Positions 2,411 through 14,584 of a stretch of 57,984 bases of DNA are shown here, piece after piece. The position numbers and the translations under genes were made by a program. This stretch comes from Candidatus Jorgensenbacteria bacterium RIFCSPLOWO2_01_FULL_45_25b (lineage in GTDB: Bacteria > Patescibacteriota > Minisyncoccia > UBA6257 > GWB1-50-10), in the NCBI GenBank assembly GCA_001781035.1, contig MFKK01000037.1, positions 1 through 57,984 of the forward strand, in the 5' to 3' direction. Positions within the stretch are counted from its first letter, which is position 1, and each line of letters begins with the position of its first letter. The notes beneath the pieces were generated by a model, which saw only the letters and a program-made list of their open reading frames with translations, was not told the DNA's origin and searched no databases.

Positions 2411-2495
2411 GGAAGGGTGCCGGAGCGGTCTAACGGAACGGCTTGGAAAGCCGTGGCTCGAAAGGGCCTCGTGGGTTCGAATCCCACCCCTTCCG
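2411..2495 (+). tRNA. tRNA-Ser (anticodon GGA)
   Basis: Manual cloverleaf: acceptor GGAAGGG/CCCTTCC, 3-bp D stem, anticodon loop TTGGAAA, long variable arm GGCTCGAAAGGGCCTC, T arm GTGGG-TTCGAAT-CCCAC. Confidence 0.9.
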
Positions 2496-4130
2496 CAGAT
2501 TGGACACAAGTCGCTCATCAAGAGCGGCTTTGTTCTTATTTGATGCGCTAAAAACGAATTGAGGATAGGTTCTAATCTGGGCAATTTCGCTTTCAACCTT
2601 CGGCAGCTTTTCAAAGATGGTTTTGAACACGGGACGCAGTGTTATAGCGACTTTCTGGTCTTGTATGACGAGGTGCGAACCTAAACAGGCAAAGATGGCT
2701 CGCTTGGTCTCCATATCGCCGCGGGCGAACCACGTGCGAGCGTATCGCGCGAAGTTGAACGTGCGCTCGCTCAATTCGAGCCATTCCTCGATTTCCCTGT
2801 TCTGCGTGCTGATGCTGCCCTCCAGCGCCGCTTTCTGCTTCAACAGGCGCGTGCGGAGGTCTTGATACTGCTGGTCGGAGATGAGTTGCCCTTCCATATT
2901 CTCTGGCGAAGAATACTTGAGCAGAAGATTATCGAGCTGCTGCGTAATGCGGAGATGCTCGCGCTCGCTGTTTTTCAAAACGGCTTCGTGCGTTTGCGCC
3001 TGTGTCTGACGGATTTCGTGCAAGTATCGGATAGCCCATTCCTTGAACTTCTCGGAGATGGTAAGTTTGTTGATTTCAGCATCAATCTGTGCGCTCAACT
3101 CCTTTAACTCAACCGCCTTCTCCTGGCAGTTCTCATCTTTCTGCTTCGTGCAGCGATAGTAAATGTAGTGGTGGATGTTGCCGTTCTTCTGGTGCTTCAC
3201 CTTCTCCTCGGCGGTAATCATCGCGCCGCAGTTGCCGCACTTCATAATCCCCGTGAAAGCAAAGCGGTGTTTTTGCGGTCGCGGTCTGCCGTTGCGTCCG
3301 AGCAGCTTTTGCACGATGTCATATTCTTTCTCCGTAATCATTGGCTCGTGCTTTCCCTGGTACCAGTTGCCGCTGCCCGCGGGGTATTCAAACATCCCGT
3401 AATAGAACGGGTTGGTAAAGATTCGATATATTGAACTGCGGCACAAAGATTTGCCGATGAAGCGTTTTGTTTTTCGGGTTTTGAACTTCCATTCCTCCCT
3501 TGCGATTCTGACAATTTTAGGCGGCGTGTAGTTGCCTGTAAGCATCAAGTCCCACATACGGCGCACCGAACCGAAACGCTCCTCATCTTTTACGATATAG
3601 TTTCTGCCCTTCTCCTCGTCTTGTTTTGTATTCAAATACCCAAGCGGCGCGCGTGAAGGATACCAGCCCATCTTGAGCTTGGTTTTCAACCCGCGCTTCA
3701 CGTTCTTGCTCAAATCAAGCACGTACTGGTTCGCCACGCCGAACTCAACAGATGTAATGAGTACGTTGTCGTCTGGGTAGTAATCTTTGTCGCTCGTCTT
3801 GATGTGCCTCAACACTTCCTTTTGAAGCAGCCACTTTATCGTTCCTTCGTCCACGGGATTGCGGGCAAGGCGGTCGAGCTTCCAACAAAGAATACCCTGC
3901 GCTTCTCCCTTCTGGATGCGGGCAATCATATCATTAAAAATCTCCCTGCCTGGAGCTTTTGCGGATTTTGATTCTATGAATGGTTGCTTAATTACTTTCA
4001 AACCAGAACGCTCCGCAATTTCCTTGAGTGTCTCAAGTTGCGACTCAATACTCAAAACTTGCCTGTCGTCATCCTCGGTGGACTTGCGGCAATAGACAAA
4101 GTATTTGATTTTTGGATTATCGTTTATCAT
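2430..4130 (-). CDS. Large serine recombinase (integrase)
   Basis: N-terminal resolvase motif YCRKSTEDDDRQ, a recombinase domain, a Cys-rich zinc ribbon (CGNCG...CTKQKDENC) and a long coiled-coil tail. The 3' end overlaps tRNA-Ser antisense. Confidence 0.9.
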   Translation of the reverse strand: MINDNPKIKYFVYCRKSTEDDDRQVLSIESQLETLKEIAERSGLKVIKQPFIESKSAKAPGREIFNDMIARIQKGEAQGILCWKLDRLARNPVDEGTIKWLLQKEVLRHIKTSDKDYYPDDNVLITSVEFGVANQYVLDLSKNVKRGLKTKLKMGWYPSRAPLGYLNTKQDEEKGRNYIVKDEERFGSVRRMWDLMLTGNYTPPKIVRIAREEWKFKTRKTKRFIGKSLCRSSIYRIFTNPFYYGMFEYPAGSGNWYQGKHEPMITEKEYDIVQKLLGRNGRPRPQKHRFAFTGIMKCGNCGAMITAEEKVKHQKNGNIHHYIYYRCTKQKDENCQEKAVELKELSAQIDAEINKLTISEKFKEWAIRYLHEIRQTQAQTHEAVLKNSEREHLRITQQLDNLLLKYSSPENMEGQLISDQQYQDLRTRLLKQKAALEGSISTQNREIEEWLELSERTFNFARYARTWFARGDMETKRAIFACLGSHLVIQDQKVAITLRPVFKTIFEKLPKVESEIAQIRTYPQFVFSASNKNKAALDERLVSNLRKGWDSNPRGPFEPRLSKPFR

Positions 4131-4968
4131 TGTTTTTATGATTACCAGGATTCTTTCTGCGAAAGATTACGTGTATCTCGTTCTCGTCTCCTGGCTTTGT
4201 CTGTTTATCCTGCGACGGTTCTGGTTGAGAGGGCGCTTTCGGTTTGAATACCACCTGGAGGCTGCCGTCCTTCGGTCTCTCGAAATATCCCTCCTCCTGC
4301 TTCGCCTCTTCTAACAGCTTCTCCAGCTCCTGCTCCTCTTGTTGATTTTGAGATAAGGTTAACTCCTCTTCTTCGAGCGCTTCCTTTTTATTGTTTAGTA
4401 TTTTTTCTTTTTCCTCTGGCGTAAAGATGCTGCTGCTGCCATAGAAAGGGTCATTGCTTCGCGGGTCTGTCTCCAGTTCCCGTTTTCTCTTTGCGTATTT
4501 TTTCCATTCTTCGCTATCTTCCTTTGGCGAGCGTAACGCCGCAATCTCTTCTTCCTGCTCGCCTAATCTGTGGAATAAAATTGCAAATGCCAACCCTCCG
4601 AAAAACAATATCCCCCCAAGCGACTCGGACAATTCAAAACTCATCAAGCCAAGCACTATTGGTGAAATACAAATTGCGGCGGAGATTTTTGAAAGCGTTT
4701 TGTAGGTCATAATCATAGTTGCTCGCGGCAATCCCCACAAATCAAAAAGGGACAGCCAGAGCCTGCGACCCACAAGATTGAATGCACGAAGGCACCAATT
4801 GTGGAGGATAGCTGCCCCTTTCAGCCCGCAATTGGAGCCGTAAAAGGCAATTACCCACGTGCTGATATTCAAACTTGTAGGTCGCAAGTTCATTATACCA
4901 ACCCTGTCAAAAGCTGCAAGGGGGTAATCCATACCTGTGAATTGCAGCAATAATGTGAGAGTGTTCAT
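4117..4968 (-). CDS. Hypothetical membrane protein with acidic coiled-coil tail
   Basis: ATG at 4968 lies 3 nt after the upstream stop. The 3' end overlaps the recombinase start by 14 nt. It has TM segments and an E/K-rich tail. Confidence 0.6.
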   Translation of the reverse strand: MNTLTLLLQFTGMDYPLAAFDRVGIMNLRPTSLNISTWVIAFYGSNCGLKGAAILHNWCLRAFNLVGRRLWLSLFDLWGLPRATMIMTYKTLSKISAAICISPIVLGLMSFELSESLGGILFFGGLAFAILFHRLGEQEEEIAALRSPKEDSEEWKKYAKRKRELETDPRSNDPFYGSSSIFTPEEKEKILNNKKEALEEEELTLSQNQQEEQELEKLLEEAKQEEGYFERPKDGSLQVVFKPKAPSQPEPSQDKQTKPGDENEIHVIFRRKNPGNHKNNDKR

Positions 4969-6216: not shown

Positions 6217-6933
6217 TTAGTTCAGTGTCTTTCTTGCTCCTGCATTCCGTTTCTTGTCCTTGCTTTCTGTTTTTGGCAAGGCATTGAGTTGCTGACGCAG
6301 TTTTACTTCATCCACTTGAAGCTCTTTCAAATCGGCATCAGTAAGACTATTTCTGAACTCGACCGCTTTAATTGATGCGTTTGGGAAGAATGCTCTTTTG
6401 AGTTCTCCCTTAAAGCCCAAGTCGGCGATAATCTGCGCAAACTTTTTGGCTATATCCAATTTCGCAGCCCGCAATGCCTCCCTGGTTATTGTTGTATTCG
6501 GGTGTTCAATTGCAAACAAGATGAAGTCGTGATTTTCAGAAGCAAAGTTTGGCTTGCCGACAATGTACTTATCATTCACGATAACCTCTCGCGTTTTGGT
6601 AAGACACACAAGGTATTTCGGCTTCGCAGACTCCAAAAACCTTTCCAGCCTTTGCCTATCAATCGAGTAAGTCCAAACTGCCCGCGGGTGCGTCCGTGTA
6701 GCGTAAAGCAATCGTGAACGCGTAGATTGCGGCTTTTCCTCTTCGTACTGGAGTTTCTTGCGCTGAATCACTCCGCTTTTGCCCAACTCTGTAACAGCCC
6801 AAAGCAAGCCCTGTTCTGATAGGTCTGGTTTGAGTAAAGAGTCCCAATAGAACTCCACATCACCGTCCGCCGCATTCTTGTATTGGAGCGCATTTGTAAT
6901 AAGTTGAATAACCGCTCGAAGTTCTTTTGTCAT
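6217..6933 (-). CDS. Hypothetical protein
   Basis: ORF 6217-7104 trimmed to ATG 6933. The longer form overlaps the convergent-looking HTH gene and leaves no promoter space. Confidence 0.5.
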   Translation of the reverse strand: MTKELRAVIQLITNALQYKNAADGDVEFYWDSLLKPDLSEQGLLWAVTELGKSGVIQRKKLQYEEEKPQSTRSRLLYATRTHPRAVWTYSIDRQRLERFLESAKPKYLVCLTKTREVIVNDKYIVGKPNFASENHDFILFAIEHPNTTITREALRAAKLDIAKKFAQIIADLGFKGELKRAFFPNASIKAVEFRNSLTDADLKELQVDEVKLRQQLNALPKTESKDKKRNAGARKTLN

Positions 6934-7026
6934 ATCATTGTCATTTGAGTCGGCCACTGCCCTGTCAAAAGTTGCCCGATTCTTAATTGAAGTGTAGAAT
7001 AAAGTTATTAGTGAGTCAAAACTTTT

Positions 7027-7209
7027 ATGATAAAGACTTACACACTGCAAGACCTGGAAAAGATACTCGGCGTCAAGGAGCGGACGCTCTTTCGGTATAT
7101 TCAAAAGGGCTGGCTCAAAGGGTCAAAGCGCGGCAAATGGCGCTTTACCGACCAGGACATAAGGGACTTCCTCAAACACGGAAGAGATGACAGTCTAAAA
7201 GCGAAGTGA
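7027..7209 (+). CDS. Excisionase/MerR-type helix-turn-helix protein
   Basis: YTLQDLEKILGVKERTLFRYIQKGWLKGSKRGKWRFTDQDIRDFL is the typical Xis-family HTH pattern. Confidence 0.7.
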   Translation: MIKTYTLQDLEKILGVKERTLFRYIQKGWLKGSKRGKWRFTDQDIRDFLKHGRDDSLKAK

Positions 7210-7230
7210 GTAGCCTCAAACAAAAGAACT

Positions 7231-10200
7231 ATGCCAAAACTTCACGGAGTATTTATCGGAATAGACCGCTATGCTTCACCAGCGATAAACTGGCTTTCTT
7301 GTGCGAGAAGAGACGCGACTGCGCTCCACGCTCTTTTCGCTGACAACCTGCCAGGCGATTTGAAGCTACTGACTGATAAAGACGCCACTCGTTCAACTCT
7401 TGAGAAAGAACTAAAAAGTCTTTCGCAATGCGCTCCCGATGACATCGTGGTTTTTGCTTTTTCTGGACACGGCACAGAGACTCACGAGCTGGTAACGTAT
7501 GATACTGATAGGGCAAAGCTCTCGGCAACAACTATTTCCCTGAACCAATTAGGAGAACATTTTTCCAAGATACCTGCGCGTCGGCTTATCTGTATTCTTG
7601 ACTGCTGTTTCTCTGGCGGGATGGGAGCGAAAGCATTGCAGGTGGACGTTGTGCCCCGTGATATACCTTCGGGCGAAGAGTTGTTGAAACAATTATCTGG
7701 AGACGGAAGAGTAATCTTGACTGCATCGCTTGCGACAGAAAAGGCGTGGGAACACCAGAAACTCGGACACGGATTACTTACCCACTACCTGTTAGAAGCA
7801 TTGCAGGGGGCGGAAGAAGTACGCAAGAGCGGCAAGGTTGGTCTCTACAAGCTACTTGATTATGTAACAACCAAAGTAATAGATTCAGCTAAAATCTTCG
7901 GAGAAGAACAACACCCAGTATTACTTGGACAAATCAAGGAAGAAATAACGCTTCCGATTTTCAAACCAGGAAAACTTTATAAGGAAGCATTCCCCGAAAG
8001 AGATACAAGAAAAGTTACCCCCGACGTTCAATCGCTGTCTGCGTTTGGCTTCCCCGACGACCTTCTCAAAGCCTGGGCAGGCTCCTCAATAACCACACTG
8101 AATCAATTACAGGTGGACGCCATCAATGAGTTTAAGGTGCTCGATGGAGAGCACCTTGTTGTCTCTGCGCCCACCTCCGCTGGTAAAACTCTCATCGGTG
8201 AATTGGCTGCTTTGCAGGGCGTCATAGAAAGAAAACGTGCGCTCTTTTTATTGCCACTAAAGGCACTGGTAAATGATAAGTTGAGACATTTTGAGGAAAC
8301 ATATGGAGCGTTTGGATTACGGACTATACGAGCAACTGGAGAGAGCACCAGCGATGACATTTTGCCCTTGATGCGCGGGCAATACGATATTTGTTTGATG
8401 ACATATGAAAAGTTTTCAGCAATGATACTCGGCAGTCCCCACATACTCGACCAGGTAAGCACGATAGTGGTTGACGAGGTACAGATGATTGCCGACAAGT
8501 CTCGTGGCGTCAATTTGGAGTTCATTCTCACTCTTCTACGAATGCGACGGAAGCAAGGCATTGAGCCACAAGTAATCGCGTTATCTGCTGTGATTGGGGA
8601 TACGAATGGTTTTGAGAGGTGGTTGGGCGCGAGATTGCTACGACGCACCGAGCGCCCCGTACCATTAGACGAAGGTATTGTCAGATTGGATGGTACTTTC
8701 CGCTATATCGAATCTGATACGGGTAAAGAAAAGACCGTGCAGTCAGCACAAACACAATTCAGGAAAGGTAGCGGACAAGATGTCATCATTCCGCTTGTAG
8801 GAAAATTGGTCAAAGACGGCAAAAGCGTCATCGTGTTCAGGGAAACCAAGTCAGAAGCACAAGCGTGCGCACTTTACTTGGCTCGAAATCTGGGCTTACC
8901 GCCTGCTCAAGTCGCAGTGGATAATCTTCCGAACACAGACCCGTCTATTTCTTCACAAAAGCTACGAGAAACATTGAATGGTGGCGTAGCATTTCACATT
9001 TCTGACTTGGATGCAGAAGAGAGAAGACTGATAGAAGAGCAGTTTCGCGCCTCATCCTCCGCACTAAAAGTTATTGCTGCAACGACAACGCTGGCGATGG
9101 GAGTGAACACACCCACAGAGGCAGTTATTATCGCGGGATTATCCCATCCTGGAGACGTGCCATATTCTGTTGCGGAATATAAGAACATTGCGGGAAGAGC
9201 TGGGCGACTCGGTTATACAACACGTGGTTCCTCATTCCTTGTCGCTCTCACTCCGAGTGAGGAACATACGCTTTGGACGAACTACATACAAGCGAATCCA
9301 GAAGATTTACATTCAAAGTTCTTTGCTGACAATACCGACCCTCGTTCGCTGGTAATAAGAGTGCTGGTAGCCGTTCGTTCAAGGCGAGGGCTTACCGCTG
9401 ATGAGATTGTGGAGTTTTTGGAAGAGAGCTTCGGTTCTTTCCAGGAAAAGATAAAGAATCCTGCTTGGGCCTGGGATAAAAACCAAATCACGGCAGCAAT
9501 TGAAGAACTGCGTACTCATCGGCTCATCGAACAAGATAAAGATGGTTTCTACCATCCAACTCCACTTGGAAGACTGGCTGGTGAATCTGGTTTGGAAGTA
9601 GAATCAGTATTGCGAGTCGTCAGTGCACTACAAGGAATCCAGCAGGCTGATATTAGCGACCCAGCACTTATCGCTCTGACCCAAGTTACTGTTGAACTTG
9701 ACCAGGTTTTATTCCCGCTCAACAAAAGAAGTACACAGAAGGAGCCTCAAACTTGGATGACAGAAGTTAGGAATCAAAGAATACCTGGGAACATCATCAA
9801 CGCATTCCATCGTTCTATCCAAGACCAAACTGATGCGACACGACGGGCTAAAAAGGCAGTGGCCTGTCTCTTGTGGATTACAGATAAACCACTGGTAGAA
9901 ATCGAAAATGTGTTGATGCAGTTTGACCGTGCAGACACTGCTGCTGGCGCCATAAGAAGCGTGAGTGCCAGAGTTTGTGATGTTTTATCCACAGTTGCCA
10001 GAATCGCTGAACTACTCAATCCAGGATTTGATTTGGCTGCTCGTGTCGAGCGATTGTTGGTGCGACTTGAAATCGGCATCCCAGCAGGGGTAGTAGAACT
10101 GGGCAGTATCTTCGGTAGGGTTTTCAATCGCGGTGATTATCTCTGTTTAATGAAAAACGGAATCACAACTAAAGAGGCATTTGAAGCCGCAAAAGAGGAT

Positions 10201-10326
10201 GCACTTTTGCAGTGTTTAGAAAACAATCGGGAAAAGCTCGCGGCAGCAAAAGTGAGGCTTGAAGAATACGAGCGAGAGGAAAAGCCGATACCTGGCTCCC
10301 CAATTCTTCCAGAATACGAAGGATAA
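7231..10326 (+). CDS. Caspase-like (peptidase C14) domain fused to Ski2/Hel308-like SF2 helicase
   Basis: C14 dyad motifs FAFSGHG and ILDCCFSGG. Helicase motifs APTSAGKT, LPLKAL, TYEKF, VDEVQ, LSAV, ATTTLAMGVNTP and AGRAGRLG. Confidence 0.85.
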   Translation: MPKLHGVFIGIDRYASPAINWLSCARRDATALHALFADNLPGDLKLLTDKDATRSTLEKELKSLSQCAPDDIVVFAFSGHGTETHELVTYDTDRAKLSATTISLNQLGEHFSKIPARRLICILDCCFSGGMGAKALQVDVVPRDIPSGEELLKQLSGDGRVILTASLATEKAWEHQKLGHGLLTHYLLEALQGAEEVRKSGKVGLYKLLDYVTTKVIDSAKIFGEEQHPVLLGQIKEEITLPIFKPGKLYKEAFPERDTRKVTPDVQSLSAFGFPDDLLKAWAGSSITTLNQLQVDAINEFKVLDGEHLVVSAPTSAGKTLIGELAALQGVIERKRALFLLPLKALVNDKLRHFEETYGAFGLRTIRATGESTSDDILPLMRGQYDICLMTYEKFSAMILGSPHILDQVSTIVVDEVQMIADKSRGVNLEFILTLLRMRRKQGIEPQVIALSAVIGDTNGFERWLGARLLRRTERPVPLDEGIVRLDGTFRYIESDTGKEKTVQSAQTQFRKGSGQDVIIPLVGKLVKDGKSVIVFRETKSEAQACALYLARNLGLPPAQVAVDNLPNTDPSISSQKLRETLNGGVAFHISDLDAEERRLIEEQFRASSSALKVIAATTTLAMGVNTPTEAVIIAGLSHPGDVPYSVAEYKNIAGRAGRLGYTTRGSSFLVALTPSEEHTLWTNYIQANPEDLHSKFFADNTDPRSLVIRVLVAVRSRRGLTADEIVEFLEESFGSFQEKIKNPAWAWDKNQITAAIEELRTHRLIEQDKDGFYHPTPLGRLAGESGLEVESVLRVVSALQGIQQADISDPALIALTQVTVELDQVLFPLNKRSTQKEPQTWMTEVRNQRIPGNIINAFHRSIQDQTDATRRAKKAVACLLWITDKPLVEIENVLMQFDRADTAAGAIRSVSARVCDVLSTVARIAELLNPGFDLAARVERLLVRLEIGIPAGVVELGSIFGRVFNRGDYLCLMKNGITTKEAFEAAKEDALLQCLENNREKLAAAKVRLEEYEREEKPIPGSPILPEYEG

Positions 10327-10388
10327 AAAGGTTCCCAGGCAAAAAGCATCAACTTGAAGGCCACGAAGAGTTCAAACCATAACATTTT

Positions 10389-10898
10389 ATGGATGTAACT
10401 TATATAAAACATAGACTTGATTTATATGTCGGCTCCATTCAATACGGTGTAGGTAATTGCAAAAACGCATACGCATACCTCAAACAAAAGAATGATGAGC
10501 TGAATGAAGCGTGGCGCAATGGTACGACGCACAGTCTCAACGAATTGGGGCATCTCGATAAGGTTTTCAAAGATTACCTGATTTTGAAAATTGCGGGTCT
10601 CTTTGACAAACGTGGCGATACGCTATCGCTTTTTAGTTTGCAGAAGTTTCTCCAAAACAATCTGCCCGATAGTGAGGGCTTATTTGCACCTGGCTTTGTG
10701 GAGATTCAAAATAAGTACCAGGACACAATCAAGAAAGTCGTGAAAGTACGACATAAAGCTGTTGCACACACGAGCGATGATTTCCCCGACAACATTCTTT
10801 ACACGCAGGACTTATTGGCAATGCCGATAATGGAGTTTCTGAAAGACGTTGAAAACCTTGCTGCGCAGGTTGGCACAATCACATTTCCAGTGAGGTAG
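10389..10898 (+). CDS. AbiU2-like HEPN-domain protein (putative RNase)
   Basis: LKIAGLFDK...KVRHKAVAHTSDD fits the Rx4-6H HEPN motif. Same strand, 62 nt after the helicase fusion. Confidence 0.5.
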   Translation: MDVTYIKHRLDLYVGSIQYGVGNCKNAYAYLKQKNDELNEAWRNGTTHSLNELGHLDKVFKDYLILKIAGLFDKRGDTLSLFSLQKFLQNNLPDSEGLFAPGFVEIQNKYQDTIKKVVKVRHKAVAHTSDDFPDNILYTQDLLAMPIMEFLKDVENLAAQVGTITFPVR

Positions 10899-11326
10899 AG
10901 GATTTTGCCCCAAAATCTCTCCATCTGGAGACGGCTACCCCAGCGCCCGCGCAAAGTTGAAAATCAAAACACCCCCCATCTATTTTGGGTTTTTAAGAAA
11001 AACGGGCACAAGAAAGACGGGGGTACACCCCGTCGGGACAGTCGCAGCGGTGATACTGTTTGAAATCGGCGATGCTGTTATACAGAAGCATACAGGGTTA
11101 AATACTGATAAGTACCATATTGAAAAACAGGGGGCTGCCAAAACAAGCCAATGTTATGTCAAAAGTTGCAAGGATGCTATTGATTGGTAGGTACGTAATG
11201 AAGCTGTACGGAATAGACCAGGAAATACTATACTACCCGTGCTGACTCCAACGAGAGTTTTGGGATGAAAAACCAGTTAGACGGGTTCTGCCAATAGGTA
11301 CGAACATCGTCCACTACCCCCCGCCA

Positions 11327-12313
11327 ATGCATATTATATTTCCTAAAAAATTACAGAAGGGTGATGAGGCGCGCGTTATCGCGCCCTCACGTTCGCTCGG
11401 TATTGTTTCCGAGGAGGTACGAAGTGTCGCGAACCGGAGATTTGCCGAACTTGGTTTGAAGATAAGTTTTGGCAGGCACGCGGAAGAAAAGGATGATTTT
11501 TTTTCTTCCAGCATTCAGTCGCGGGTGGAGGATTTGCACGAGGCCTTCCTTGACGCGAATGTCGTGGCAATTTTTACGGCCATCGGCGGTTTTAATTGCA
11601 ATCAGTTGTTTCAATATTTTGATTGGAATCTGATACAAAATAATCCGAAGATATTGTGCGGTTACTCTGACATCACGGCTTTGAGTAACGCGATGTTCAC
11701 AAAAACCGGACTTGTTTCATATTCGGGTCCGCATTATTCCACTTTTGGTCAGGAGCTCTATTTTGACTATACGTTGGACTACGCGAAGCGATGTTTGTTT
11801 TCTAATAATAGATTTCAAATTCATCCAAGCATGGAATGGAGCGATGATTTGTGGTATAAAAATCAAAAGACGCGCGACCTTATTCCAAACCGTGGATTCC
11901 TTGTGATAAATGAGGGGAGAGCTTCGGGCAGAATTCTTGGGGGCAACCTTGGTACGTTTAACTTATTGCAGGGCACGGAATATTTTCCTAATCTTAGGGA
12001 TTCTATTTTGTTTCTTGAAGATGACCTTGAGTCATTGCCTCACACTTTTGACCGTGATTTACAGTCGCTTATTCATGTACCCGGATTTGCCGGAGTCCGA
12101 GGGATTGTGATTGGTAGATTTCAGAAGGCGAGCAATATGCCTGATGAGTTATTGATTAAAATTATCAAAACAAAAAAAGAATTGGATAGGTTACCGATTC
12201 TTGCGAACGTTGATTTCGGACACACCGACCCTAAATTCACCTTTCCCATAGGCGGGGAAGCGAATATGGAAATTCTGAACGGGAAAGCGAAACTGGAAAT
12301 AGTAAAACATTGA
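11327..12313 (+). CDS. S66-family LD-carboxypeptidase (LdcA/MccF-like)
   Basis: GYSDITAL nucleophile motif and C-terminal DFGHTDP. Confidence 0.8.
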   Translation: MHIIFPKKLQKGDEARVIAPSRSLGIVSEEVRSVANRRFAELGLKISFGRHAEEKDDFFSSSIQSRVEDLHEAFLDANVVAIFTAIGGFNCNQLFQYFDWNLIQNNPKILCGYSDITALSNAMFTKTGLVSYSGPHYSTFGQELYFDYTLDYAKRCLFSNNRFQIHPSMEWSDDLWYKNQKTRDLIPNRGFLVINEGRASGRILGGNLGTFNLLQGTEYFPNLRDSILFLEDDLESLPHTFDRDLQSLIHVPGFAGVRGIVIGRFQKASNMPDELLIKIIKTKKELDRLPILANVDFGHTDPKFTFPIGGEANMEILNGKAKLEIVKH

Positions 12314-12363
12314 AGTTTTTGTTTTTTTGAGTTTGTTGCTGGAGTTGGTAAACTAGAAATGTG

Positions 12364-13056
12364 ATGATAGCAAAAAAAAGATTGAAGGTTGGTGTTATCA
12401 GGTTTCCGGGTTCAAATTGTGATTTTGACACGCTTCATTTTTTTAAAAAGTTCGGACATAAGGCGGAATTTATTTGGTATAAGGACGTAAGCATTCCGCG
12501 TTATGATTTACTTGTTCTTCCCGGCGGGTTCGCGTTTGGGGATCGTGTATACGCCAAAGCAACGGGGCATTATGATATAGATCCGGGTGTTCTCGCGATT
12601 TCTTCGCCGGTACTTAAGGCCATTAAACGGGTGGTTCGTTTGGGCGTGCCGATTTTGGGTATTTGCAACGGTTTTCAGATTCTCGTAAAAGCAGGGCTCT
12701 TGCCCGGTAAGCTGGTTCAAAACGATTCAAAAAAGTTTTTTTGCGACTATGTTCGCTGTGCAGTTCAGGGCGCGTCTTTTTTTGGCGACCCTTCCATGCT
12801 TGGGAAAACATTTATTATTCCGGTCGCGCACGGGTATGGCAGATATATAGCGTCAGCACGTTTGTTGAATAGATTGCAGAAAAACAAGCAGATTTTTTTA
12901 AGATATTCAACATTTAATCCGAACGGGTCCGCGCTGAATATCGCGGGAGTTTGCAACGAGCAAAAAACTATTTTTGGCATGATGCCCCATCCGGAGCGGT
13001 CGCTTGATGGGAAGTATTTTATGCGCGCAATAGAAACATATGTCGCGGGAAACTGA
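12364..13056 (+). CDS. purQ: Phosphoribosylformylglycinamidine synthase, glutaminase subunit
   Basis: VGVIRFPGSNCD, GICNGFQIL and MPHPER motifs. Confidence 0.9.
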   Translation: MIAKKRLKVGVIRFPGSNCDFDTLHFFKKFGHKAEFIWYKDVSIPRYDLLVLPGGFAFGDRVYAKATGHYDIDPGVLAISSPVLKAIKRVVRLGVPILGICNGFQILVKAGLLPGKLVQNDSKKFFCDYVRCAVQGASFFGDPSMLGKTFIIPVAHGYGRYIASARLLNRLQKNKQIFLRYSTFNPNGSALNIAGVCNEQKTIFGMMPHPERSLDGKYFMRAIETYVAGN

Positions 13057-14584
13057 TATACCAAAGATTCTTGCCGAGGCGATGGCGAGCGAGCATACAA
13101 GCTACAAGAGCACGAAGAAGTTTTTGTCGCGTCTCCATACCAAGGGCAAGTATGTGATACAAGGGCCCGGCGAGAACGCGGGAATTGTTGATTTGGGAGG
13201 AGGATGGGCGCTCGCGATGCGCGTGGAGAGCCATAACCATCCGTCGTTTATAAAGCCATATCACGGGGCCGCGACAGGAGTCGGCGGAATCTTGCGGGAT
13301 ATTTTTACCATGGGCGCGCGCCCGATCGCGCTTTTGGATATTCTTCGTTTTGGAACTGATAGGAATGCTCGTCGTCTTTTGCGCGAGGTTGTTCGCGGTA
13401 TTTCCGATTATGGTAATTGTGTTGGGGTGCCTGTTGTCGGCGGAGATTTGTATGTTGACAGCACATACAATCATAATTGTCTTGTGAATGTCGCGGCGTT
13501 CGGTTTGGTTCGGAAAGATAAGATTATTTATGGCAATGCCCTTACTCCCGGAAATGATTTAATTTATGTCGGCGCGCGGACGGGGAGAGACGGGGTGGGC
13601 GGCGCGCAGATGGCGTCCGCGAATCTTGACGCGCAGGATGAGGCTACTATTCAAGATGCCGACCCGTTTCTTGAGAAGTTACTTTTGGAGGCGTGTTTAG
13701 AGCTTGCCGATACGCCGTGGATTGAAGGAATGCAGGATATGGGCGCGGCTGGACTTTTGTGTTCCACGTCCGAAGTCGTGCTCCGCGGACGCAAGAAAAC
13801 GAAAAAGAATCTTGGCGCGAGAGTGTATCTTAATCGTGTTCCGACTAAGGCGCGAAATATGTCGCCGGTTGAGATGTTGCTTTCAGAGTCACAGGAGCGA
13901 ATGTTAATTGTTGGACATTGCAGACATCGCGAAAAAATTCTTAAGGTGTTTAAGAAGTGGGATTTAGAGGCATGCGTGGTTGGCGCGGTAACGAATGACG
14001 GGAAGTATACGATTGTGTATGACACTCCGCGCAAAAAGAATATTATTTTGCCAATGGAGTTTTCAGATATTTTTCCTGATGTACGAGAGGATTGGGATTT
14101 GACGAGTTGGAAAGCACAAGGTACGAAACACGAAAAAGCCGCGAGTCGGATTACACAAGAGATTTGGCATCAGTATGATTGGATGGTTGGTATTCGGACG
14201 CTTAAGGGTCCGAATAAGTCGGGGCGTTACGCCGTGCTTGATGTGCCGGAAATTGGAAAGGAAATTGTTATCGCGTGGAGCTCGGATGAGGGATTGTCGG
14301 ACAGCGATCCGGCGCGCGGGATTCAACACGCGTTTGATGTTTGCTTGCGTCGTTTGCGTTCTCTTCGCGCGATGCCTCTTGGAATTACGAATTGCCTTAA
14401 TTTCGGGCACCCAAAAGATTCAATGGGCGCGTTTGCAGAAACGATAGATGCTCTTACGAAACGCTGTAAAGAGAAAAATATTCCGGTTGTGGGCGGAAAT
14501 GTGAGTTTGTATAACGCGCACAGAGCGTACTCAATCAAACCAACCCCTGTGCTTATTATGGCGGGGGTGAGGAGACGAGTGTAA
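13040..14584 (+). CDS. purL: Phosphoribosylformylglycinamidine synthase subunit PurL, C-terminally short
   Basis: SEHTSYKS, GPGENAGIVD, ESHNHPS, GAATGVGGILRD and GGNVSLYN motifs. At 514 aa it lacks the last AIRS_C-like domain. Confidence 0.85.
   Translation: MSRETDIPKILAEAMASEHTSYKSTKKFLSRLHTKGKYVIQGPGENAGIVDLGGGWALAMRVESHNHPSFIKPYHGAATGVGGILRDIFTMGARPIALLDILRFGTDRNARRLLREVVRGISDYGNCVGVPVVGGDLYVDSTYNHNCLVNVAAFGLVRKDKIIYGNALTPGNDLIYVGARTGRDGVGGAQMASANLDAQDEATIQDADPFLEKLLLEACLELADTPWIEGMQDMGAAGLLCSTSEVVLRGRKKTKKNLGARVYLNRVPTKARNMSPVEMLLSESQERMLIVGHCRHREKILKVFKKWDLEACVVGAVTNDGKYTIVYDTPRKKNIILPMEFSDIFPDVREDWDLTSWKAQGTKHEKAASRITQEIWHQYDWMVGIRTLKGPNKSGRYAVLDVPEIGKEIVIAWSSDEGLSDSDPARGIQHAFDVCLRRLRSLRAMPLGITNCLNFGHPKDSMGAFAETIDALTKRCKEKNIPVVGGNVSLYNAHRAYSIKPTPVLIMAGVRRRV

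Follow-up and report, generated by a model that had tools for sequence, protein, structure and literature searches.

A mobile caspase-Hel308 helicase fusion protein of bacteria as a candidate one-gene defence system

In the Hachiman defence system, HamB is a Hel308-like helicase that senses DNA damage, and according to the paper that reports this, bacteria lack Hel308 (PMC12278908). In HamMAB, DNA sensing, ATP hydrolysis and oligomerisation of a Ski2-like helicase are relayed to a fused trypsin-like protease, which leads to activation of a pro-nuclease (PMC12799240). Proteases of the caspase fold are also used as immune effectors: the caspase of type IV Thoeris is promiscuous and arginine-specific (bioRxiv 10.1101/2024.10.24.620036), and a stand-alone caspase-like protein, with no effector gene, protects Escherichia coli in a manner that depends on its catalytic cysteine (PMC12642450). 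Herein, we describe a gene that unites the two kinds of protein in one chain. It lies in a 57,984-nt contig of Candidatus Jorgensenbacteria bacterium RIFCSPLOWO2_01_FULL_45_25b (MFKK01000037.1; this whole stretch is called the window, and all positions are those of its forward strand). Its product joins an N-terminal caspase-fold (peptidase C14) domain to a Hel308-type helicase, and we propose it as a candidate one-gene defence system.

The fusion protein resembles Hachiman and HamMAB in its Ski2/Hel308-like helicase, the sensor in those systems, which in HamMAB is likewise tied to a protease. It differs from HamMAB in that there is no gene for an MBL pro-nuclease, the protease has a caspase fold rather than a trypsin-like one, and the protease is carried on the helicase, not on HamA. 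With the caspase effectors of type IV Thoeris, of type III CRISPR (PCaspase) and of the Avs/bNACHT fusions, with CanA and with the stand-alone E. coli protein it shares the C14 fold and the His-Cys dyad, and several of these effectors likewise need no dedicated substrate gene. The proposed activator is a fused DNA helicase, whereas elsewhere it is a TIR-made nucleotide, a SAVED-CHAT cascade or a STAND NTPase.

A preliminary description of this DNA, made from the letters alone, had taken the pairing of the two domains to be undescribed. In a full-text literature search, no description of a caspase-Hel308 or caspase-helicase defence protein was found, and only two domain tables listed the combination: 12 bacterial metacaspases with helicase domains (PMC3501461) and 3 cyanobacterial orthocaspases with DEAD and Helicase_C domains (PMC8283722), both given without analysis. 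These proteins are probably the same as, or related to, the present family, and neither survey recognises that the helicase is of the Hel308 type or that the gene is mobile, stands alone and has a defence context; nor does either propose a mechanism. The pairing had thus already been listed, but had not been analysed. In the conflict-systems paper that defined EACC1, helicases appear only as restriction-modification (R-M)-type or superfamily 1 (SF1) partners.

Architecture and conservation of the fusion protein

On the N-terminal part, Peptidase_C14 (PF00656) matched residues 7-231 with 47.5 bits against a Pfam cutoff of 21.4, and the NCBIfam model caspase_w_EACC1 ('caspase, EACC1-associated type') matched with 94 bits, which is under its cutoff of 140. 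When the domain was modelled alone (pTM 0.85), a caspase-hemoglobinase fold was obtained, composed of a p20-like part with H80 and C126, a linker loop of low confidence (residues 127-143) and a p10-like part. Foldseek searches with this model retrieved the paracaspase MALT1, caspase-7, the bacterial protein GSU0716 and the metacaspases Yca1 and MCA2 with E-values of 1e-10 to 1e-8. The sequence could also be aligned, weakly, to the Trypanosoma brucei metacaspase MCA2, with FSGHG paired to YSGHG and DCCFSG to DC[C/A]HSG.

The catalytic dyad named in the preliminary description, H80 and C126, is unchanged in 25/25 aligned sequences and in 65/65 divergent representatives, the latter being the near-full-length caspase-bearing proteins among the best 150 matches to the helicase part in a library clustered at 50% identity. 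Since C125 is variable, C126 is the nucleophile. Three acidic residues are kept as well, D28 in all 65 representatives, D124 in 64 and E174 in 63. In the arginine-specific proteases MALT1 and MCA2, the aspartate of a D-x-C motif and two more acidic residues line the S1 pocket; D124, two residues before C126, is a candidate for such an S1-pocket acid. Because D28, D124 and E174 are conserved, a basic (Arg/Lys) preference at P1 is predicted, and the protease is probably Arg/Lys-specific. The loop 127-143 is itself often basic, with a basic residue at K134 in 44 of the 65 representatives and at R143 in 40.

Basic residues in this loop are compatible with autoprocessing, and therefore with a reversed division of labour, in which the helicase would be the effector and the caspase domain would be regulatory (autoprocessing, inhibitory or a bait by which a phage protein or protease is sensed), its cleavage or engagement licensing the motor to unwind or strip invader DNA. 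Helicase-driven effectors are known in other defence systems. We nevertheless regard this arrangement as distinctly improbable: caspase-like domains act as effectors in the precedents, and the His-Cys dyad and the three acidic residues of the putative pocket are so well conserved that a working protease, acting in trans or on itself, is to be expected rather than a mere bait.

The remainder of the chain is a helicase, of a type that would work 3'-5' on DNA. DEAD (residues 292-455, 89.6 bits) and Helicase_C (575-661, 36.6 bits) were both found above their Pfam cutoffs, and motifs Ia, Ib, II (DEVQ), III (SAV), V (TTTLAMGxNTP) and VI (GRAGR) are invariant in the 25-sequence alignment. The NCBIfam Hel308-type model PRK02362 aligned residues 274-1005 to its positions 8-697 of 739. 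Its score of 296 bits against a cutoff of 887, and that of helicase_Hel308 (214 against 1200), are far under the equivalog thresholds, by which the helicase is classed as Hel308-like and not as an orthologue. Helicase_dom4_arc (Pfam) was not reported for the window protein, although it was reported for relatives in the sister clade described below.

Among the PDB sequences, Pyrococcus Hjm (2zj2) matched best, with an E-value of 1e-49 over query residues 294-960. Hel308 structures came next, together with DNA polymerase theta in its helicase domain (about 1e-38), whereas HamB (8vx9) matched at 8.6e-22 over only part of the motor. The HamB models of PADLOC likewise matched the helicase part only partially (1e-34 to 1e-13). 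An AlphaFold2 model of the whole protein, built with 25 homologues, had a pLDDT of 82 and a pTM of 0.72, and Foldseek gave it a target-normalised TM-score of 0.86 to full-length Hjm (2zj8) and Hel308 (9b15). Given this agreement over full-length Hjm and Hel308, all five Hel308 domains are present, namely two RecA domains, a winged helix, a ratchet and a helix-hairpin-helix-like domain 5. The body is thus the same five-domain body, with motifs I-VI, as in Hel308/Hjm and the Pol-theta helicase (E 1e-49 to 1e-38, TM about 0.8-0.86), and a complete Hel308 architecture exists in bacteria. Unlike archaeal Hel308/Hjm, the present family is bacterial and mobile, carries an N-terminal caspase domain and scores below the equivalog level.

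Collectively, Pfam, NCBIfam, PDB and Foldseek results agree on the caspase-helicase fusion that the preliminary description had read from the letters, and the five domains in the model and in the PRK02362 alignment bear out its complete Hel308-type body with a winged-helix/ratchet tail. Its comparison with Ski2 helicases and HamB held as far as the Ski2/Hel308 type is concerned, but the protein is far closer to Hel308/Hjm and Pol-theta than to HamB.

Between the two parts, the linker is conserved in the 25-sequence alignment (F254, P255 and YGFP..LL.AW), and both the protease and the helicase activities appear, from these patterns of conservation, to be under selection. The window comes from a metagenome bin, but no evidence was found for an assembly or binning artefact that joined two genes near nt 7950-8100, and such an artefact can be dismissed for practical purposes: the identical protein is recorded on 7 contigs, under the Candidatus Jorgensenbacteria bin, the linker region is conserved, and the architecture recurs, unbroken, in finished and isolate genomes, in closed plasmids and in more than 120 clusters, far more often than chance would allow.

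At the extreme C-terminus, P1024, P1027 and Y1029 are conserved in a segment that is modelled as disordered (pLDDT <50 at residues 1019-1031). The consensus of this tail is P-[IL]-[LIV]-P-x-Y-E in the core clade and SDIPLYEE in Bacteroidota. Divergent clades have related hydrophobic/acidic tails, and in the most distant clade the tail is Q-x-x-L-F or QLxLxL-like (the tails compared included those of P0154, P0159, P0196, P0205, P0208, P0210 and P0218-P0220). The latter form presumably resembles the bacterial beta-clamp-binding motif QL[SD]LF, and the tail may serve to dock the fusion on a component of the replisome.

Distribution and gene neighbourhoods of the family

Members of the family have so far been annotated only as 'DEAD/DEAH box helicase'. 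The more than 120 full-length homologous clusters, which are a lower bound, span lineages of the Candidate Phyla Radiation (CPR), Proteobacteria, Bacteroidota, Elusimicrobiota and Omnitrophota; the best 120 are all about 1030 aa long and 57-89% identical, and nearly all have the same Pfam architecture. Relatives were found in up to 282 of 185,579 species-representative genomes (one genome per species), in at least 12 phyla. The carriers include Chryseobacterium, Sphingobacterium spiritivorum ATCC 33861, Pedobacter, many Bradyrhizobium and Afipia (among them Afipia broomeae ATCC 49717), Nostoc, a complete Myxococcus chromosome, Streptomyces, Planctomycetota, Acidobacteriota and CPR lineages. 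Full-length copies also occur on 17 plasmid records, some of them belonging to a second clade at about 37% identity; a copy on a Hymenobacter plasmid is 37% identical. In phage genomes, no full-length fusion was found, only Hjm-like helicases of lipothrixviruses. Since an identity of about 60% is kept across phyla, the gene has been transferred horizontally.

Among the species representatives, 17 loci (L026-L037, L043, L048, L049, L057 and L063) carry copies of one version of the fusion that are at least 85% identical to each other; they belong to Bradyrhizobium, Afipia, Rhodopseudomonas, Sphingomonas, Bosea and Xanthobacter. These loci have kept as neighbours a ThiF-like open reading frame (ORF), a DUF2158/YodC-like 78-aa ORF directly upstream and a serine recombinase downstream, which suggests the recent spread of a single mobile element.

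Outside the fusion proper, the helicase occurs in other settings. P0130 has a 50%-identical helicase behind an unrelated N-terminal 250 aa, and in a large sister group at about 30% identity (P0214, P0217, P0224) the helicase stands at the N-terminus and is followed by a C-terminal extension of about 200 aa; P0231 ends in a profile-supported HATPase_c domain (residues 968-1068). By eye, the N-terminus of P0130 had been taken for a class III nucleotide cyclase (GDGF) and the sister-clade extension for a PD-(D/E)xK nuclease (PD..E.K), and neither assignment was supported by Pfam or by searches of PDB sequences. Because profiles did not identify these alternative domains, the modularity is used here only as a sign that the Hel308-type motor is a reusable module.

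To look for a conserved partner, the fusion loci were dereplicated to 53 lineages, and neighbours were clustered from greedy gene calls rather than from raw six-frame ORFs, in which shadow ORFs of high-GC DNA and a single near-identical element of Bradyrhizobiaceae prevailed. Across the 53 lineages, no neighbour family occurred in more than 9, and of the 132 genes nearest to the fusion in 52 lineages, no more than 4 belonged to any one Pfam or PADLOC family. Partners known from related systems were missing too. HamA/DUF1837 was not found among the neighbours in the window and is not conserved in the 53 lineages. No TIR partner of the type IV Thoeris kind is present in the window island; elsewhere TIR occurs in 2 of the 132 neighbours, and no TIR or STAND partner is conserved. 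A substrate or effector gene beside the protease (of the MBL, alpha/beta-hydrolase, Pepco, EACC1 or canu types) is not a conserved neighbour either, and the gene upstream in the window encodes a helix-turn-helix (HTH) protein, not EACC1. The fusion is a self-contained single-gene unit without a conserved partner.

Tyrosine integrases are the commonest neighbours (9 lineages), followed by serine recombinases (8 lineages); one or the other is present within 6 kb in 15 of the 53. Recurring families comprise integrases, resolvases, transposases, R-M methylases, pAgo, TIR/ThsB, E1-E2, Fic, Schlafen-like proteins and other caspases. Examples are a locus with a type III R-M system directly 5' of the fusion and integrases on the flanks; a locus with Z1/HNH, a Multi_ubiq-E2-ThiF/JAB (E1) system and an HTH and Peptidase_M78 pair nearby; a Sphingobacterium locus with an SF1 helicase and an nSTAND NTPase downstream; a locus with SymE; a Hymenobacter plasmid with Tn3, an exonuclease, a PLD protein and Fic/VbhA; and the Acaryochloris plasmid pREB8, with NB-ARC and TIR genes. 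The homologues are therefore not confined to housekeeping contexts, but lie in mobile-element and defence neighbourhoods. Two lineages that are not related to each other, represented by a metagenomic contig and a Hymenobacter plasmid, have exonuclease genes of the DEDD/RNase_T type near the fusion (L087 7157-7885, L088 660-1388 and L091 6829-7743).

The family could also be read as a DNA-repair or replication-fork enzyme. Whether in the service of the host or of the element, its motor would travel along damaged DNA, and the protease would clear away protein roadblocks or crosslinked proteins, or else process a factor of the replisome. Its closest characterised relatives, Hel308/Hjm and Pol-theta, are repair helicases; the conserved tail, with what we take to be a likeness to the clamp motif in the distant clade, would suit recruitment to the replisome; and DEDD-type exonuclease genes lie nearby in two loci. 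However, the spread is patchy and crosses phyla by transfer, the setting is one of plasmids and integrative elements among R-M, pAgo, TIR and STAND genes, and repair partners are not conserved. A repair function is rather improbable on this evidence.

The island in the window and its other cargo

In the window, the fusion gene is cargo of a serine-recombinase island of about 8.9 kb at a tRNA-Ser gene, which extends from 2411 to about 11327 (Table 1). The island, which the preliminary description had already named, was recognised by the domains of the recombinase, its overlap with tRNA-Ser and a backbone that is syntenic, with differing cassettes, in L081 and L082, the loci of two 89%-identical relatives. 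The three ORFs of the cargo region are co-directional, with gaps of 21 nt between the HTH gene and the fusion and 62 nt between the fusion and the HEPN gene; when recomputed, these ORFs and gaps and the codon coordinates of H80, C126, the Walker A motif and R121/H127 of the HEPN protein (10749-10769) agreed with those first given.

Table 1. Positions of the island, its genes and the functional sites of the fusion protein in the window
Feature	Position (nt)	Strand	Basis
tRNA-Ser(GGA), left island border	2411-2496	+	ARAGORN; Rfam tRNA 56 bits
Large serine recombinase, island backbone	2430-4130	-	Resolvase, Recombinase and Zn_ribbon_recom (Pfam); PHROG integrase
Excisionase-like HTH gene (60 aa), island backbone, head of cargo region	7027-7209	+	HTH_17, MerR_1; PHROG excisionase families
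Caspase-Hel308 fusion gene, 1031 aa, stand-alone unit	7231-10326	+	ORF; Pfam; homologues; AlphaFold2
Caspase-fold (peptidase C14) domain, residues ~1-245	7231-7965	+	PF00656
Catalytic His80 codon, FSGHG	7468-7470	+	Conservation
Catalytic Cys126 codon, LDCCFSGG	7606-7608	+	Conservation
Five-domain Hel308/Hjm-type SF2 helicase, residues ~270-1005	8038-10245	+	NCBIfam, PDB, Foldseek
Walker A / motif I APTSAGKT (K319)	8167-8190	+	Columns S312-T320 invariant
Conserved extreme C-terminal motif SPILPEYEG, residues 1021-1031	10291-10326	+	Alignment
AbiU2-type HEPN gene, 169 aa, independent neighbour	10389-10898	+	PF18734; R121-x5-H127
Probable right-terminal island segment	11204-11327	.	blastn 79% identity to L081 9366-9489

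The recombinase ORF crosses the 3' two-thirds of the tRNA gene on the opposite strand, and its C-terminal residues (...GWDSNPRGPFEPR) are antisense tRNA. Since the ORF spans the 3' part of tRNA-Ser, the element supplies or overlaps the 3' end of the tRNA. A direct repeat derived from tRNA-Ser was sought at the right end of the island, where nothing convincing and no displaced tRNA fragment was found; with a serine recombinase, a flanking direct repeat is not expected. The right end was set by synteny with L081, whose flanking host genes differ.

The window shares with L081 and L082 the recombinase, DUF5659, the HTH region (6930-7185), the fusion (7224-10359) and the right-terminal segment. In both relatives, 2.2-2.4 kb of other cargo stands between the HTH gene and the fusion: an HpaII methylase, its endonuclease and Vsr in L082 (3566-6000), and a hydrolase, a NUDIX protein and DUF5680 in L081 (3798-5994). 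The HEPN ORF lies in a region of about 850 nt (10360-11200) that has no counterpart in either relative. The serine-recombinase elements of CPR thus have at least two cargo slots with swapped cassettes, in the window at 7185-7224 (between HTH and fusion) and 10360-11200 (after the fusion, with HEPN), and the fusion gene is their constant cargo.

The HTH gene had been described as of the excisionase/MerR type, which its HTH_17, MerR_1 and PHROG excisionase matches uphold. Its product is 68% identical to the HTH protein of L082, and it is classed by these matches as an excisionase or regulator of the island backbone. For the 169-aa ORF, HEPN_AbiU2 (PF18734) gave an E-value of 9e-6 and 25.7 bits, just below the cutoff of 26.8. 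The subfamily is small and rare (7 clusters); 5 of the 7 members match PF18734, with a best E-value of 2.8e-9, and RHKxVAH (R121, H127) is invariant. The protein, which UniRef names a RiboL-PSP-HEPN domain protein, is by these signatures a genuine AbiU2-type HEPN, as first suggested, and would be a separate, stand-alone defence gene.

The preliminary description had further treated the fusion, the downstream AbiU2 HEPN RNase and the upstream HTH gene as one two- or three-gene defence module. The genes do run in one direction with gaps of only 21 and 62 nt, no terminator is predicted between the fusion and the HEPN ORF, and in L001 an unrelated nucleotidyltransferase-HEPN (PF05168) gene lies directly downstream of the fusion. 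Against this, the HEPN family, searched for with the single sequence and with a profile, has no copy in the 92 other fusion loci, including the four whose fusion is most similar to that of the window (79-89% identity). The HEPN gene lies within the window-specific segment, and its 56%-identical homologue is found in another defence island (L089, with HEPN_AbiV, HNH, PDDEXK and AbiEii) that has no fusion gene. The HTH gene belongs to the backbone and is parted from the fusion by other cassettes in the relatives. The module was accordingly given up as a highly improbable arrangement.

The locus L001 (Rickettsiales, 78% identity) carries its nucleotidyltransferase-HEPN fusion at 3460-4374, 55 nt downstream of the caspase-helicase gene. 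This HEPN is non-homologous to the AbiU2 protein of the window and is the second HEPN neighbour among the 53 lineages; its adjacency is probably a matter of co-location in defence islands.

Several further observations concern the island and the contig. A 23-nt direct repeat (..TGTCAAAAGTTGC) occurs at 6953-6975, just 5' of the HTH gene, and at 11147-11169, 3' of the HEPN ORF, with a weaker copy at 4895-4917; the copy at 11147-11169 falls within a 40-nt segment (11131-11170) that is conserved with L082. The repeat may act as an operator or mark where a cassette of the cargo region ends. Directly right of the island lies an LD-carboxypeptidase-like gene (11327-12313, NCBIfam match), and the ORFs at 12361-13056 and 13040-14584 gave, by eye, an impression of likeness to PurQ/PurL. 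Such content, if so, would be unusual for a CPR genome and bears on the assignment of the bin. The identical 169-aa HEPN protein (P0121) is deposited under two bins of the same study, Bacteroidetes (OFZ34368.1) and Jorgensenbacteria (OGG39684.1), which reflects either inconsistent binning or an element common to both populations; the fusion is deposited under Jorgensenbacteria only (OGG39683.1).

Proposed function of the caspase-Hel308 protein

From the architecture, the conservation of the two active sites, the mobility, the lack of a conserved partner and the defence-type neighbourhoods we infer, with moderate confidence, that the protein is a one-gene abortive-infection protein directed against phages or mobile elements, in which a Hel308 DNA sensor controls a caspase effector; a single chain of sensor and effector had already been suggested in the preliminary description and is plausible. 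The Hel308 motor would load onto abnormal DNA, such as 3' single-stranded tails, forks or replication intermediates of an invader. Engagement of DNA and ATP hydrolysis would then unite or free the protease domains, as in the dimerisation-driven activation of caspases and paracaspases, and the protease would cut host or phage proteins after Arg/Lys, with no need for a dedicated co-encoded substrate. A more specific form, in which the protein would act as a single-chain surveillance protein of the replisome or of DNA ends, with its tail docked on the beta clamp or an SSB-interacting hub, would read the replication intermediates of invaders and would trigger a paracaspase-like death protease by DNA-templated dimerisation, is unlikely.

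Several points weigh against a defence role. The family is known here from sequences and predicted structures, and its Hel308 relatives are DNA-repair helicases. The enrichment in defence islands was judged qualitatively, without a background control, and guilt by association with mobile elements also suits addiction or competition between elements. No dedicated substrate gene is conserved beside the fusion that would point to a target of the protease. PADLOC v2 has no model for the family, of which only parts are matched by the generic HamB, PDC-M23B, SngC, BrxH and 'caspase' models, and the AlphaFold2 model gives no confident information on how the helicase might gate the protease.

Independently of function, the complete Hel308 architecture found here in bacteria corrects the statement that Hel308 is absent from them (PMC12278908). 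If the proposed function is true, the protein would be a one-gene immune module in which DNA sensing of the Hel308 type is coupled directly to a protease of the caspase type. Bacterial caspase immunity, which is known to take its input from TIR-made nucleotides, CRISPR signalling or STAND NTPases, would gain a new input, and sensor helicases of the Ski2/Hel308-like type, which in Hachiman are known to lead to nuclease release or trypsin-like protease cascades, would gain a new output. The family is directly testable, since it is present in cultured Sphingobacterium spiritivorum, Chryseobacterium spp., Afipia broomeae, Bradyrhizobium spp. and Myxococcus and on plasmids. If the protein does act in surveillance at the replisome, the Hel308/Pol-theta repair lineage would be tied to caspase-type cell-death signalling in bacteria.

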